Below are positions 748 through 4,384 of a DNA stretch of 4,384 nt, in pieces. The notes beneath the pieces were generated by a model. That model did no database searches. It worked only from the letters and a program-made list of their open reading frames with translations, and was not told the DNA's origin. The translations under genes were made by a program, and so were the position numbers. Position 1 is the stretch's first letter. Each line of letters begins with the position of its first letter. This DNA is from a virus (lineage: Duplodnaviria > Heunggongvirae > Uroviricota > Caudoviricetes). The DNA is taken from the IMG/VR virus record IMGVR_UViG_2703718872_000002; one strand, written 5' to 3'.

Positions 748-999
748 ATGGGATACGGTTTACTGGATATTGCGAATCAGTCACGTCGAGAGGCATTACA
801 GGGAATAAGTGACGCCGACAGGCGACGTGAAGAAATTGAGGCTGCTAACAAGCAGATGGCGGCGCAACAGAAAGCGCAGAACAAGCAGAATATCGGTACG
901 GGCATTGGTACGGGGGCGGCTATGGGCGCTGCCGTTGGTGGTCTCCCCGGTGCGGCTATTGGTGCTGTCATAGGTGGTCTTGCTGGCTCGTTGTTTTAA
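748..999 (+). CDS. small (83 aa) protein with charged N-terminal half and C-terminal glycine-zipper hydrophobic helix; putative membrane-inserting protein
   Basis: ATG at 748 to TAA at 997-999 with a strong SD. N-terminal half is charged (…SRREALQGISDADRRREEIEAANKQMAAQQKAQNKQN…). C-terminal 35 aa (nt 892-996) read IGTGIGTGAAMGAAVGGLPGAAIGAVIGGLAGSLF, a run of G/A at i, i+4 spacing typical of glycine-zipper transmembrane helices. Confidence 0.75.
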   Translation: MGYGLLDIANQSRREALQGISDADRRREEIEAANKQMAAQQKAQNKQNIGTGIGTGAAMGAAVGGLPGAAIGAVIGGLAGSLF

Positions 1000-1003
1000 G
1001 GAG
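998..1003 (+). promoter_or_regulatory. Shine-Dalgarno AAGGAG, 6 nt upstream of the ATG at 1010
   Basis: AAGGAG at 998-1003 overlaps the TAA stop of the upstream gene. Confidence 0.65.
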
Positions 1004-1009
1004 TGGTGA

Positions 1010-2272
1010 ATGAGCGGATTTGCACAGGGGTTACTTGCCGGATTCAGCACCGTTGACCAGGCCATGACCCGTCGTAAGGAGCTTGGTCTGCGTGAAGCAC
1101 AGCTTGCTCAACAACAGAAAAATAACGAGCGCGATTTTGAATTTGCGCAGTCGCAGTTTGAGCATCGAAAGGAAAATGATCAGCGTACATATGATCTTAA
1201 TGTCAAAAATGCCGATCGTGAATATGCGCTGAAAGAGAGGGAACACGCCGCAGCGCAGAATTACCGGAATGCGTCACTTGGCATTTCTCAGCAGAGGCTG
1301 CAACTGGAAAAATACAACCAGCGACGGCTTGAGTATAACGATATGATTGCCCACAGCCAGCCATTAATGACAGCGCTTGGAAAAGCAATTGATGCTGGCG
1401 ATCAGGAGGCTGCAATGCGTATTTACGGGCAGTTACCAAAGGGACATCCATTAACTCTTATGTCAAGTGAAGGCTATGCAGCGAAAGCGGGTCAGGCCGT
1501 GAACAACCTGCAAAAAATCTTTGATGACAAGCCGGACAGGGCGATCGCTTCACTCAATACCCCGGAAAGTCTTGATGCGCTTTCTGGTGTGTTTGCCCCG
1601 GAACTGCAACAGCGTATTGGCATGCCCGATTCAACCGGGAAAAAGACGATAAAAGAGGCCAGGATTGGCAGTATCGTACCGGCGCAGCAGGAAGGGTACG
1701 TACTTATTGGCCTTGATCTCACATACAGCGATGGCTCCACCGCGCATAAACCTGTAACAGAATACGGCAGTGCACATCCTGATGATCAAACCGTGCTGGC
1801 GGTGCCTGTTGATAAGGCTATTGAGCTTGTCAGGGATCGCAGTAAATTCGCGGAAATTTCGAAAAATTTCGGTTATTTCACGCCGAAGCAGGAGGGGCTT
1901 TCTCTGAAAGATATCCAGAAAGAAGCCAGCCAGGTAGCAGCGGAAGCGATCAAGAACGGCGGTAATGCTCAGGCTGCGAGGGATGAATTTTTAGCTGCGC
2001 ATGGTTTACCGGAATATCAGCAGAAAATTCAGCAACAGAAATTTGAACAGCTTTTACAGAAGGGGCAGACCTGGGCGGAGGGCGATCCGGTCAAACTGGA
2101 GTTTGTCAAAGCGACTGCCGCCAATATGCCAGCCTTGCTGGAACCGGGGCGTGAAAAGGAACTGGAAATTTGGTACCAGAATCACCTCCGGGATAAAAAA
2201 GCCGAACAGGAAAAAGCGAAGAATTATAGCGCTGCTGCATCAGCCGAAGAGATCAGAGGCTGGATGAAGTAA
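1010..2272 (+). CDS. hypothetical protein, 420 aa; short N-terminal small-residue hydrophobic segment followed by a long highly charged (Q/E/R/K) probable coiled-coil region; function unknown
   Basis: ATG at 1010 to TAA at 2270-2272 with a good SD. Long uninterrupted ORF with antisense shadow ORFs only. N-terminus MSGFAQGLLAGFSTV, then …RRKELGLREAQLAQQQKNNERDFEFAQSQFEHRKENDQRTYDLNVKNADREYALKEREHAAAQNYR…. No catalytic motif recognised. Confidence 0.85.
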   Translation: MSGFAQGLLAGFSTVDQAMTRRKELGLREAQLAQQQKNNERDFEFAQSQFEHRKENDQRTYDLNVKNADREYALKEREHAAAQNYRNASLGISQQRLQLEKYNQRRLEYNDMIAHSQPLMTALGKAIDAGDQEAAMRIYGQLPKGHPLTLMSSEGYAAKAGQAVNNLQKIFDDKPDRAIASLNTPESLDALSGVFAPELQQRIGMPDSTGKKTIKEARIGSIVPAQQEGYVLIGLDLTYSDGSTAHKPVTEYGSAHPDDQTVLAVPVDKAIELVRDRSKFAEISKNFGYFTPKQEGLSLKDIQKEASQVAAEAIKNGGNAQAARDEFLAAHGLPEYQQKIQQQKFEQLLQKGQTWAEGDPVKLEFVKATAANMPALLEPGREKELEIWYQNHLRDKKAEQEKAKNYSAAASAEEIRGWMK

Positions 2273-2317
2273 AGTTACGCGGCAGTAACGCACTTCCCGT
2301 TAATCTCGTTCACTTAC

Positions 2318-2344
2318 GCCCGACCATCGCGTCGGGCTTTTTTT
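2318..2344 (+). terminator. Rho-independent (intrinsic) terminator, + strand
   Basis: Perfect 7-bp GC-rich inverted repeat GCCCGAC (2318-2324) / GTCGGGC (2331-2337) around a 6-nt loop (CATCGC), followed directly by TTTTTTT (2338-2344). The reverse complement has no U-tract after the stem, so it is unidirectional. Lies 46 nt after the stop of the 420-aa gene. Confidence 0.7.
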
Positions 2345-2347
2345 ACT

Positions 2348-2351
2348 GGAG
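2348..2351 (+). promoter_or_regulatory. Shine-Dalgarno GGAG, 5 nt upstream of the ATG at 2357
   Basis: GGAG at 2348-2351, immediately after the terminator U-tract. Confidence 0.55.
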
Positions 2352-2356
2352 TCTGT

Positions 2357-4384
2357 ATGGCTTATTCAGATGAACAGCGCCCTGAAGCACAATTGGGTAA
2401 CCGGAACCGCAGTAGCCTGAACATTAAGCAGCCGGGCGAAAATTACTGGCAGGATTTTTTCAACAACCCGGAGAACGCTGTTGATCACAGCACATCGTTC
2501 AGCCTGAGTGATGTATTACCAACGATGGGGAAAGGTGTCGCCCAGTCTGTCCGGGGAACAGGGGAAATGGCCCGTGGACTCGGTGATGCGATGATTCAGA
2601 GTCCTGTAAAAACAGGGGCGCGTATTTTAAATGAGTTCAGCCGTATGGGGCTACCGGGTGTCGCAACTGTTCAGGATATTTTTGCCGGTGGCAGCAAGGG
2701 GGCTGATGAGGTCATCGATACTCTGCCTGATGGCAAGAACGCGGTGACTGATACTGTCGGTAAAGGTCTGAAGGCAACCGGCAAGGCAGTCAGTGATGGC
2801 GCTAAAGTATCGGATGAATGGCTGACCGATAAGATGTCGCCGGGGGCGCAGCGGGCGCTGAATACACCGATGACTGAAGGATATGATGATTCAGCGGTCT
2901 GGGTAGCGAAAGGGGTTAACCTGATTGGTGCGCTTGTACCGGATATGGTTGCAGGCGGTGTGACTAAAAAGCTTGGTGATGTCACTCTGCGAAAAGTGCT
3001 GACCGCCGGGCTGGAGAAAAAATACATCGCGGCAGGGATGCAGCCGGAAAGAGCTACCGCACTGGCAGCAGAAGCTGTCGATAAAAAAATGCCGGATTTA
3101 TTCCAGGCGGGTCTGATCACCCATTCCACAGCCAGCGCACAGGGGCAGAGTGCAATGGTAGCGGCAGATGCTGTTCTTAACGCGGATTACTCTGAGCTGG
3201 CGAAGTCACCGAAATTCCAGCAGACATTTTTGTCAATTGATGCAGATCCGCAGCACGCGCAGCTTACTGACCGCCAGAAAATGGACCTGGCAAAAGAGCG
3301 TGTGGCTGATGAGGTGCGTGCGCAGCTGGCAACCGATCCTCAGTTGCTGGCTGTGAATGCCATGGCGGCAAAACTGGGCGATGCACAGTTGCTTAATCTG
3401 GCGATGCGGGGTACGGCGAAGACCGTTAAGAGCGGCATTATCAGAAACGCCACAGAACAGGGCGTAATTAACGGGGCGCAGGGCGGCTATTCGCGTTACC
3501 AGGAAAATATGGCGTTGCGTGAGACCGCCGGAATGGATGTGTCACCGGGGGAGGGCGTGGCTGACGCAACGATCGAAGGTGCAGCCCTTGGTGCTGCGAT
3601 GGGGGCACCATTCGGTGCGGTTGCCGGATATCGTGGCAGACGTCATGCCGCAGAAGAAACCGCCATGCGTGAGGCTGAAAGCGTTCCTCAGGACGAATCG
3701 GCTCCGCAACCCGAACCGGTTGATCCGGTGGCACAGCATCGTGAATCCATGCAGGGGATGAATCGCGAGCAGCTTCTGGAACAGTATGCTGATGCGGATA
3801 TGGCACATGAGGAAGACACGTCTGCCGTTCATCGCCGGGAAGCCGCCAGCCAGCTGTTGAATGAACTGGATGAACAGGCGAAGCGACAGGCGGTAATGGA
3901 TGAGCTGAAGGCGAAGCCGCGCCCTGAACTGCTTGAGGAATACCGAAAACTCAGCCTGAAGGAAGGGCGTACTGATACTGAAGAGCAGCAGTTACAGGCT
4001 ATCCGTGATGTGCTTCGCCCTCAGCAGGAGGCCAGACCGGAGGCACAGCCACAGCCGGAAAATGCGGATGATGGCGACGGGAGTATTTACCCGACGGTGC
4101 GGTTCCGCGATCCGGATGAAGTTCGTATTGAAATTAACGGGAGTGGTGCGTCCAGACCAGCAGAACGCATTGAAAAGGTGCGTCCGGACAACCGTTATTT
4201 CACGGATGAAAAAAGTGCTCTGGGGAGCGACGTTTTCCGCAATGCCAGCGCCACCGGCCTGAAACCGTCCGTAGTGAAGAAAGGCGAGAATCAGTATGCC
4301 GTTGAAATGGATAATCCTGCGTTCTCTGAAGATGTGGCAACGGAGACCATTAACACTCTGGCTGACGGAGAGCGTATTGCTGAT
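2357..4384 (+). CDS. large hypothetical protein, 3'-truncated by the window edge (>676 aa); contains an internal glycine-zipper segment and acidic Pro/Gln/Glu-rich linker-like segments
   Basis: ATG at 2357 with GGAG 5 nt upstream. I translated frame 2 by hand from 2357 to 4384 (676 codons) and found no stop. It is missing from the ORF track only because it lacks a stop inside the window. Translation begins MAYSDEQRPEAQLGNRNRSSLNIKQPGENYWQDFF… and includes …IEGAALGAAMGAPFGAVAGYRGRR… (about nt 3572-3640). All track ORFs overlapping it are antisense or alternate-frame. Confidence 0.85.
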   Translation, partial: MAYSDEQRPEAQLGNRNRSSLNIKQPGENYWQDFFNNPENAVDHSTSFSLSDVLPTMGKGVAQSVRGTGEMARGLGDAMIQSPVKTGARILNEFSRMGLPGVATVQDIFAGGSKGADEVIDTLPDGKNAVTDTVGKGLKATGKAVSDGAKVSDEWLTDKMSPGAQRALNTPMTEGYDDSAVWVAKGVNLIGALVPDMVAGGVTKKLGDVTLRKVLTAGLEKKYIAAGMQPERATALAAEAVDKKMPDLFQAGLITHSTASAQGQSAMVAADAVLNADYSELAKSPKFQQTFLSIDADPQHAQLTDRQKMDLAKERVADEVRAQLATDPQLLAVNAMAAKLGDAQLLNLAMRGTAKTVKSGIIRNATEQGVINGAQGGYSRYQENMALRETAGMDVSPGEGVADATIEGAALGAAMGAPFGAVAGYRGRRHAAEETAMREAESVPQDESAPQPEPVDPVAQHRESMQGMNREQLLEQYADADMAHEEDTSAVHRREAASQLLNELDEQAKRQAVMDELKAKPRPELLEEYRKLSLKEGRTDTEEQQLQAIRDVLRPQQEARPEAQPQPENADDGDGSIYPTVRFRDPDEVRIEINGSGASRPAERIEKVRPDNRYFTDEKSALGSDVFRNASATGLKPSVVKKGENQYAVEMDNPAFSEDVATETINTLADGERIAD

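Follow-up and report, generated by a model that had tools for sequence, protein, structure and literature searches.

Conserved glycine-rich segments in a candidate ejection protein cassette of a 933W/phi24B-like Escherichia coli prophage

Several proteins encoded side by side at one phage locus carry a similar short segment rich in glycine and alanine, and the question is what this recurrence means. The locus is a stretch of 4,384 nucleotides (nt) from the IMG/VR virus record IMGVR_UViG_2703718872_000002, analysed over its whole length and referred to here as the window. It contains, completely or in part, five genes termed ORF1 to ORF5 (ORF, open reading frame). We propose, with a probability of roughly 60%, that they form a cassette for ejection proteins, that is, internal virion proteins, and that the Gly/Ala helices serve oligomerisation and membrane insertion after ejection. 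The proposal rests on the positions and the conservation of the motifs, on the presence of orthologous proteins in virions and on the homologies, indicated by profile comparisons, to gp7 of phage P22 and to the N-terminal domain of gp50 of phage N4.

The window is the late-operon end of a 933W/phi24B-like (Sepvirinae) E. coli prophage. Over all 4384 bases it shares 99.9% identity with a prophage of E. coli 2015C-3121 and 88-96% with 186 Shiga toxin (Stx)-converting and related short-tailed phages of the Sepvirinae, such as 933W, VT2-Sakai, phi24B and ArgO145. In annotated records an N4-gp56-type capsid gene is followed by tail and fibre genes and then by the cassette, which the attachment site adjoins. 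Of ORF1 the window contains the last 96 codons and of ORF5 the first 676; ORF2, ORF3 and ORF4 are complete. All cassette genes lie on the same strand and are spaced by 2-10 nt, except for a last gap of 84 nt between ORF4 and ORF5. Genes and segments are as follows (aa, amino acids; L001, the locus of the E. coli 2015C-3121 prophage).

2-289, + strand: 3' part of ORF1 (full length 218 aa, L001 14633-15289)
152-187, + strand: small-residue segment of ORF1, LVGAGLGAVGAY (aa 174-185; G176-x3-G180 and Y185 invariant)
292-738, + strand: ORF2 (148 aa), orthologue of phi24B gp50
748-999, + strand: ORF3 (83 aa), called 'bacteriocin' in some records, orthologue of an 86-aa frame of phi24B
892-996, + strand: glycine zipper of ORF3 (aa 49-83; G52, 56, 60, 64, 68, 72, 76 and 80 in i+4 register)
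1010-2272, + strand: ORF4 (420 aa), orthologue of phi24B gp48
1016-1045, + strand: N-terminal peptide of ORF4, G3-F-A-Q-G7-L-L-A-G11-F, conserved across the family
2357-4384, + strand: 5' part of ORF5 (full length 2792 aa, L001 17357-25735), orthologue of phi24B gp47
2357-3676, + strand: N-terminal domain of ORF5 (~aa 1-440), common to ~60 cluster representatives
3572-3631, + strand: glycine zipper of ORF5, IEGAALGAAMGAPFGAVAGY (aa 406-425; G408, 412, 416, 420 and 424 in i+4 register)

All four Gly/Ala segments were found where the initial annotation had located them: AGLGAVGAYA of ORF1 spans nt 161-190, the N-terminus MSGFAQGLLAGF of ORF4 nt 1010-1045 and the core GAALGAAMGAPFGAVAG of the ORF5 segment nt 3578-3628 (aa 408-424). 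A glycine zipper was reportedly defined by Kim et al. in 2005 as GxxxGxxxG or (G,A,S)xxxGxxxG. With eight in-register glycines in ORF3, five in ORF5 and three in ORF4 (G3, G7 and G11), these three segments are glycine zippers in this sense; ORF1 has a GxxxG (G176-x3-G180) only and no full zipper. The statistics single out fewer segments than the three, possibly four, that had been counted. ORF3 contains eight GxxxG, with 2.4 expected, and six zipper patterns, with less than one expected (P<=0.001 in shuffles), and full-length ORF5 is likewise enriched in zipper patterns (14, with 4.8 expected). ORF1 and ORF4 showed no enrichment over their own composition (shuffles, P 0.2-0.6), and their segments matched none of the Pfam glycine-zipper families. 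When the segments were aligned pairwise, the check that had been suggested for the recurrence, the ORF3-ORF5 pair exceeded composition-matched shuffles (z=3.8, P~0.001); the other five of the six pairs were not significant, three of the six scoring at or below the shuffle mean. Thus, this sequence taken by itself yields two motifs, in ORF3 and ORF5, and it is conservation that supports all four.

Distant syntenic cassettes were detected with tblastn in Aeromonas phage phiARM81mr and in ~100 Vibrio phages, including D183, and two scans of IMG/VR added 160 further loci; the first scan used the ORF4 motif itself as pattern and the second was seeded on ORF1. ORF1-ORF2-ORF3-ORF4-giant protein is the gene order throughout, save for truncated contigs and a few frameshifted or wrongly assigned ORFs. 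The cassettes of phiARM81mr, D183 and ~160 IMG/VR contigs have kept all four segments at overall identities of 20-50%, and because of this retention we regard all four as real and selected features, those of ORF1 and ORF4 being short (12-13 residues). The family pattern of ORF1 is [LA][VA]G-x3-G-x3-5-Y-G. The ORF4 consensus, G-[FL]-A-x-G-[FLV]-L-[AS]-G-F, is N-terminal in every case, and G3, A5, G7, A10 and G11 are five of 11 invariant columns among the 420 of the protein. Since the ORF4 motif is present again in the loci seeded on ORF1, where it includes a GLADGFLAGF variant outside the first search pattern, its conservation was not forced by that pattern. In the ORF5 family the consensus reads DPxxGV...EG-x3-G-x3-G-x3-G followed by a basic residue, and G412, G416 and G420 rank by conservation within the top 12 of 480 columns of the giant proteins and are kept in ~60 cluster representatives.

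Orthologues of these cassette proteins are found in virions of a close relative. A preprint on phi24B (10.64898/2026.04.10.717836) presents virion proteomics and cryo-electron microscopy (cryo-EM) of virions purified independently of CsCl (caesium chloride), and its proteome table lists orthologues of all five cassette proteins; the data are thus those of phi24B and not of the prophage studied here. The numbers of peptide-spectrum matches (PSMs) are:

ORF1, phi24B gp51: 523 PSMs
ORF2, phi24B gp50: 129 PSMs
ORF3, 86-aa frame of phi24B: 13 PSMs
ORF4, phi24B gp48: 1634 PSMs, rank five among the phage proteins of the batch sample
ORF5, phi24B gp47: 10962 PSMs

The low count for ORF3 may be due to a small number of tryptic peptides. 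Intact particles as well as particles that had ejected their DNA were present in the preparation. For gp47 the authors suggested a function as ejection protein, given its abundance and its absence from the cryo-EM density; the main text of the preprint does not use the names gp48, gp50 and gp51 (10.64898/2026.04.10.717836).

ORF3 provides the first of two links to known ejection proteins. It consists of a charged N-terminal helix followed by a C-terminal glycine-zipper hairpin, a tail of 35 uncharged residues (Kyte-Doolittle mean over 19 residues 1.69) with a GGLPG turn and a conserved GSLF C-terminus; in the family the two zipper helices, a GGP-type turn and the GSLF end are all conserved. 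With the Pfam model P22_gp7 (PF25688, cut-off 28 bits) the homologue P0278 scores 28.2 bits and seven of ten family members match (best E 2.5e-5); the ORF3 of the window is itself not reported at E<=1, and the matches cover only positions ~147-230 of the 230-position model, not its full length. The ORF3 family aligns end to end with residues 152-229 of P22 gp7 (hhalign, 90% probability, E 1.5e-6), and its hidden Markov model (HMM) scores gp7 with 19.5 bits, a value reached by none of 1000 local shuffles. Judged by these profiles, ORF3 is in all probability homologous to the C-terminal third of the P22 ejection protein gp7. With the Pfam family Gly-zipper_YMGG (PF13441), ORF3 scores 28.1 bits, just under the cut-off of 28.9, and ten of ten family members match at E<=1; it also matches PHROG entries within families of 1100-1550 aa. 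In a variant of ORF3 from a 933W-like phage (L043, 5684-5989) and in the C-termini of some P22-like gp7 proteins (L167-L246), the stretch GAMIGSVVPGIGTA[IV]GA is nearly identical, which suggests a mosaic exchange of the zipper module between 933W-like and P22-like phages. At the other end of the protein, Gly-rich N-termini are conserved in ORF3 (MGYGLLDI, window 748-780) as well as in ORF1 (MGGSKGGG or MGKGGS, L001 14633-14660).

The second link is made by ORF5, a giant polyvalent protein in which the Pfam domains LPD38 (166.6 bits), LPD5 (154.7), LPD1 (82.5) and MuF_C (63.8) all score above cut-off. Pfam has no model for its N-terminal domain, and no match was obtained in aa 1-1050. A full-library HMMER search with aa 1-480 retrieved ~60 cluster representatives, which are giant proteins of 1300-4665 aa. 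The profile of the domain scores the N-terminal domain of N4 gp50 with 47.5 bits over 366 aligned columns at 18% identity; 1000 composition-preserving local shuffles gave a mean of -26 and a maximum of -5.8, and the reversed sequence gave -37.7. These scores indicate that the N-terminal domain of ORF5 is homologous to that of the N4 virion RNA polymerase (vRNAP) gp50. The C-terminal edge of the domain is marked by the zipper, after which come basic residues and a linker that is acidic and rich in proline; ORF5 aa 395-430 align with residues 415-453 of N4 gp50, which are also Gly-rich. The zipper has a 19-residue Kyte-Doolittle mean of 1.19 and scores 19.0 bits with Gly-zipper_YMGG, below the cut-off of 28.9. 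An AlphaFold2 (AF2) model of the domain is all-helical, with a mean predicted local distance difference test (pLDDT) of 63, and places the zipper inside a helix spanning residues 401-441 (pLDDT 50-72). Foldseek comparison of this model with the PDB returned nothing usable (best E 0.75, template modelling score (TM) <0.16), and the profile showed no homology to P22 gp16. Outside the window, the C-terminal LPD38 domain has Gly-rich hydrophobic stretches as well, IALAAVGAGYLLGSL (aa 2444-2466) and AAGNVVGGVLGAFSPIG (~2540-2560), so that the giant protein has small-residue helices at both ends.

ORF4 is a candidate for the periplasmic tunnel subunit. In its AF2 model (pLDDT 65, low confidence) the protein is mainly helical, with one helix of ~118 residues (aa 12-129). 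Foldseek found no convincing relative of the model among solved structures (best E 0.13, TM<0.16), and the family profile found none among PDB sequences. There is no Pfam match for ORF4; Inj_translocase (PF16928) in particular did not match any of 23 family members at E<=1, and hhalign gave 0.5% probability for P22 gp20. The N-terminus of P22 gp20, GGFLAGIG, resembles the ORF4 peptide; in a post hoc test, three of 2000 shuffles matched as well within the first 15 residues.

For ORF1, matches to PHROG 611 and, weakly, to PHROG 8003 ('virion structural protein') were found. Its segment, with a 19-residue Kyte-Doolittle mean of 0.85, is probably too short and too weakly hydrophobic to make a transmembrane helix alone. 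The conserved motif is followed by the run GGNGGGGG (window ~200-227, aa 190-197), which is absent from the Aeromonas and Vibrio homologues, and the C-terminal tails of those homologues are unrelated in sequence and length. ORF1 aa 2-75 align with residues 23-103 of P22 gp7, starting right after the cleavage site of OpdA (5.9 bits, reached by eight of 1000 shuffles), and in a second collinear piece the ORF1 zipper coincides with the first of the zipper helices of gp7. The hhalign comparison gave a probability of 13% (P=0.002), and no member of the ORF1 family matched the P22_gp7 model at E<=1. That ORF1 and ORF3 both descend from an ancient gp7-like gene is a weak lead. The N-terminus of ORF1 aligns with the mature N-terminus of P22 gp7 that OpdA generates (KGGKGG). 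ORF2 has no zipper, yet is always part of the cassette.

How might these proteins work together? They would be synthesised in the cytoplasm and incorporated into the head. Once the phage has adsorbed, they would be expelled through the short tail, passing it in an unfolded or extended form, and would then oligomerise, enter the host membranes and form a conduit across outer membrane, periplasm and inner membrane. The Gly/Ala segments might be weakly hydrophobic helices with a glycine face that allow each subunit to be soluble before ejection, both inside the producing cell and inside the capsid, and to self-associate and insert into host membranes afterwards. Going by what is generally known of glycine zippers, several copies packed by their glycine faces could form membrane-embedded bundles. 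The recurrence of the motif would then arise because ejection proteins must be soluble first and membrane-inserting later. Membrane insertion, the membrane targeted by each protein and the oligomeric states are what we infer here, and confidence is highest for ORF5, lower for ORF3 and lowest for ORF4. The N-terminal domain of ORF5 would, like that of N4 gp50, anchor the protein in the inner membrane, with the zipper (aa 406-425) beside the linker to the cargo domains delivered to the cytoplasm. ORF3 could, like the C-terminus of gp7, be a small helical-hairpin pore or anchor, probably of the outer membrane. ORF4 might form a periplasmic tube of long helices, anchored or docked at one end by the invariant N-terminal peptide. 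A further generalisation, tentative and on balance unlikely, is that a glycine-zipper helix at a terminus or domain edge is a modular soluble-to-membrane switch shared by P22-, N4- and 933W-like podophages. The switch would be located at the C-terminus of gp7 and ORF3, at the N-terminus of gp20 and ORF4 and at the end of the N-terminal domain of gp50 and ORF5, and the zippers of successive subunits would be junctions of the ejectosome or rings embedded in membranes.

Several observations weigh against an ejection module with membrane-inserting zippers. For a classical transmembrane helix, the segments of ORF1, ORF4 and ORF5 lack either sufficient length or sufficient hydrophobicity (Kyte-Doolittle 0.85-1.19), and the predicted membrane-spanning helices of the N4 N-terminal domain (224-278) map to ~aa 200-237 of ORF5 and not to the zipper. 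Confidence in the AF2 models is low (pLDDT 63-65), and the N-terminal peptide of ORF4 is disordered in its model (pLDDT <50). For ORF4, homology could be detected neither to P22 gp20 or N4 gp51 nor to any solved structure, and ORF1 and ORF2 have no assignable counterpart in known ejection systems. Phage T7 gp14 is without a glycine zipper; therefore, the motif is a feature of some ejectosome lineages and not a general requirement. The authors of the phi24B preprint regarded a 'bacteriocin homologue' and a 'transcription regulation factor' as contaminants, judging from annotation only (10.64898/2026.04.10.717836). The latter is presumably gp48, which is labelled 'Transcription factor?' in the proteome table. 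Synteny, conservation and the homology to gp7 argue that both gp48 and the 86-aa protein are genuine internal proteins of the virion. Finally, by analogy with the terminal segments of N4 gp52 and gp51, the segments could equally be docking or assembly peptides used before ejection.

This last possibility can be taken to its extreme, namely that the segments are packing or assembly signals of the soluble pre-ejection state, used for incorporation into the procapsid or for docking in the lumen of portal and tail, and never meet a membrane. GxxxG motifs also pack soluble proteins, and in N4 the N-terminal 16 residues of gp52 lie in the adaptor lumen and a hairpin of gp51 on the portal before ejection (PMC13434306). 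The strictly N-terminal position of the ORF4 motif and the strictly C-terminal position of the ORF3 motif with its invariant GSLF are what one would expect of docking peptides; the ORF1, ORF4 and ORF5 segments are also of low hydrophobicity. However, the ORF3 hairpin is long and uncharged and resembles membrane glycine-zipper families, and the homologous N-terminal domain of N4 binds lipid. We consider such an exclusively soluble role unlikely; a function before ejection is also compatible with a later one in the membrane, so that the two do not exclude each other. At the opposite extreme, the zippers of different proteins could pack glycine face to glycine face in one hetero-oligomeric transmembrane bundle. 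The proteins are encoded together, their phi24B orthologues are all in the virion, the zippers of ORF3 and ORF5 are alike beyond composition, and the inner-membrane complex of N4 is proposed to join the C-terminus of gp51 with the N-terminal domain of gp50 (PMC13434306). Against this, the ejectosome subunits of T7, DEV and N4 each assemble into a separate homo-oligomeric ring, at different levels of the envelope, and zippers in the outer and in the inner membrane would therefore be ~20 nm apart. In addition, no ORF3-like module was fused to another cassette protein among the best 120 homologues, which are all stand-alone proteins of 78-94 aa. By analogy with these systems, packing between zippers of proteins from different envelope layers is unlikely, and for a single mixed bundle we see quite a poor chance. 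The membrane-inserted, hetero-oligomeric assembly suggested by the initial annotation is partly supported, as far as the ejectosome as a whole is concerned, by the conserved tight cassette, the orthologues in virions and the homologies to gp7 and gp50. The known ejectosomes to which these homologies lead are hetero-oligomeric channels that are inserted in membranes and cross the envelope.

The recurrence might also have its origin in the history of the genes. If ORF1 and ORF3 arose from a gp7-like ancestor by a split or a partial duplication, at least two of the zippers would be paralogous. The ORF1 alignments to gp7 described above, together with that of ORF3 to gp7 152-229, fit this idea, as does an internal repeat of ORF3, where 12 codons are duplicated (913-944 and 949-980, 81%), the sole clear duplication found. 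The poor hhalign probability of ORF1 with gp7 and the failure of its family to match P22_gp7 speak against it, and there is no DNA similarity between the genes beyond codon constraints: the inter-gene match of nt 913-974 with 3578-3603 (26 nt, 77%) is what is expected from Gly and Ala codons. We therefore found no support at the DNA level for the duplication or shuffling within the locus that had been offered as a second explanation, and a common descent of the zippers from gp7 is, in our view, doubtful. Far less probable is that the recurrence is a mere by-product of Gly/Ala-rich composition or of low-complexity linkers without specific function. ORF1 and ORF4 are not enriched over shuffles, five of six segment pairs do not align significantly and ORF1 has a lineage-specific poly-Gly run; however, the i+4 glycines are invariant in relatives with only 20-30% identity elsewhere, and the segments are predicted to be helical where modelled. 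The conserved glycine register largely refutes this explanation. Similarly remote is a reading of ORF3 as a bacteriocin-like or membrane-active peptide for toxicity, lysis or exclusion, to the benefit of host or prophage, with a likeness to the other segments that is compositional. NCBI names many homologues 'bacteriocin', and there are weak matches to the Bacteriocin_IIc (PF10439), MccV and E492 microcin models, but the scores of 18.2, 12.4 and 14.5 bits are far below the respective cut-offs of 27.1, 27 and 50. ORF3 has neither a signal peptide nor a double-glycine leader (its N-terminus MGYGLLDIANQSRRE is not a leader), it is located in a late structural operon with fixed synteny in ~160 phage loci, its phi24B orthologue is found in virions, and it appears homologous to the C-terminus of gp7.

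The surroundings of the cassette genes show some further features. The gap of 84 nt between ORF4 and ORF5 contains the following element:

2318-2344, + strand: terminator-like GC-rich hairpin (7 pairs, 6 of them G-C) with 7 T

It resembles an intrinsic terminator and could lower the expression of the 8.4-kb giant gene relative to that of the four small genes. Immediately upstream of ORF1 lies a gene for 117-131 aa (L001 14185-14538; phiARM81mr, L003 1220-1579; D183, L004 2909-3304) that is kept in the Aeromonas and Vibrio cassettes. Its product has one hydrophobic stretch and no Pfam match and may be a sixth member of the cassette. In Vibrio phage D183 a gene for an HNH endonuclease is located on the opposite strand between the homologues of ORF3 and ORF4 (L004 4532-5323), the sole interruption of the cassette that we saw. 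In phiARM81mr (KT898134; L003 ~4400-6137) the giant gene is annotated from record position 49636; this start is probably wrong, since the open frame and the N-terminal domain with its zipper reach ~1.7 kb further upstream. The E. coli 2015C-3121 prophage carries an IS1A element after a truncated 'phage tail tip fiber' pseudogene, adjoined by a partial hok/gef gene (L001 9620-12505), and may for these reasons be defective in infection.

The 933W/phi24B-like phages spread Shiga toxin genes, and the module bears on the entry of their DNA across the envelope. Ejectosomes, polyvalent proteins and glycine zippers are each already known, and in the searchable literature no paper was found that links the term 'glycine zipper' to ejection proteins or virions. 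Measured against that literature, three aspects appear to be new: the five-protein module of 933W type, including two proteins previously dismissed as contaminants; the homology of the N-terminal domain of a polyvalent giant to that of the N4 vRNAP; and conserved zipper segments at chain ends or domain boundaries of consecutive ejection proteins of the P22, N4 and 933W lineages. Sequence comparison connects the module with the ejectosomes of P22 and N4 alike, and a conserved, putatively anchoring N-terminal domain without a Pfam model is now defined as the beginning of many giant polyvalent 'cargo' proteins. With their invariant glycines, the helix faces are precise and cheap targets for mutagenesis of the proposed switch from the soluble, packaged to the membrane-inserted state. 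If the switch exists, it would provide a sequence signature for ejectosome subunits and for the anchoring domain of polyvalent cargo in uncharacterised phages.

Compared with known systems, the cassette shares its i+4 glycine register, spanning 3-8 turns, with membrane glycine zippers. The best Pfam matches for the ORF3 and ORF5 segments were Gly-zipper_YMGG, Gly-zipper_Omp, Gly-zipper_OmpA and Rick_17kDa_Anti, all below cut-off. Unlike the zippers of outer-membrane lipoproteins and unlike bacteriocins, the cassette proteins have no signal peptide, lipobox or leader and are delivered by the virion. ORF5 is multi-domain as are the phage-type polyvalent proteins described by Iyer, Burroughs, Anand, de Souza and Aravind in 2017 (PMC5512222). 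That paper describes LPD38 as phage-specific, and a term search of it returned neither 'glycine' nor 'transmembrane' (PMC5512222), whereas the N-terminal domain of ORF5 has a terminal zipper.

The likeness to the system of N4 (Schitoviridae) gp52, gp51 and gp50 and of their equivalents in DEV includes the capsid gene, which is of the N4-gp56 type. N4 gp50 is, like ORF5, a giant ejected protein with an apparently homologous N-terminal domain, a Gly-rich domain end and a long linker. The isolated N-terminal domain of N4 gp50 is reported to enter nanodiscs, and gp51 and gp52, which behave like membrane proteins, to form channels in bilayers (PMC13434306). Differences to N4 are the number and order of the genes and the cargo of ORF5, which is LPD5, LPD1, MuF_C and LPD38 and not an RNA polymerase; profiles of ORF1 to ORF4 scored ~0 bits against N4 gp51, gp52 and gp53.

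From P22 the cassette differs in having five proteins instead of three. ORF3 corresponds to the last third of gp7 only and is preceded by ORF1 and ORF2, and the giant polyvalent protein of 2792 aa bears no similarity to the 609-aa gp16. The similarities concern layout as well as single proteins. P22 gp7, gp20 and gp16, as well as gp11-13 of Sf6, are encoded by consecutive late genes for internal virion proteins, as are the proteins of the cassette. Like ORF3, gp7 has a glycine zipper of two helices, a turn with proline and a GSLF end, and like ORF4, gp20 is encoded after a gp7 or gp7-like gene, is of similar size (471 and 420-470 aa) and starts with a G[FL]LAG peptide.

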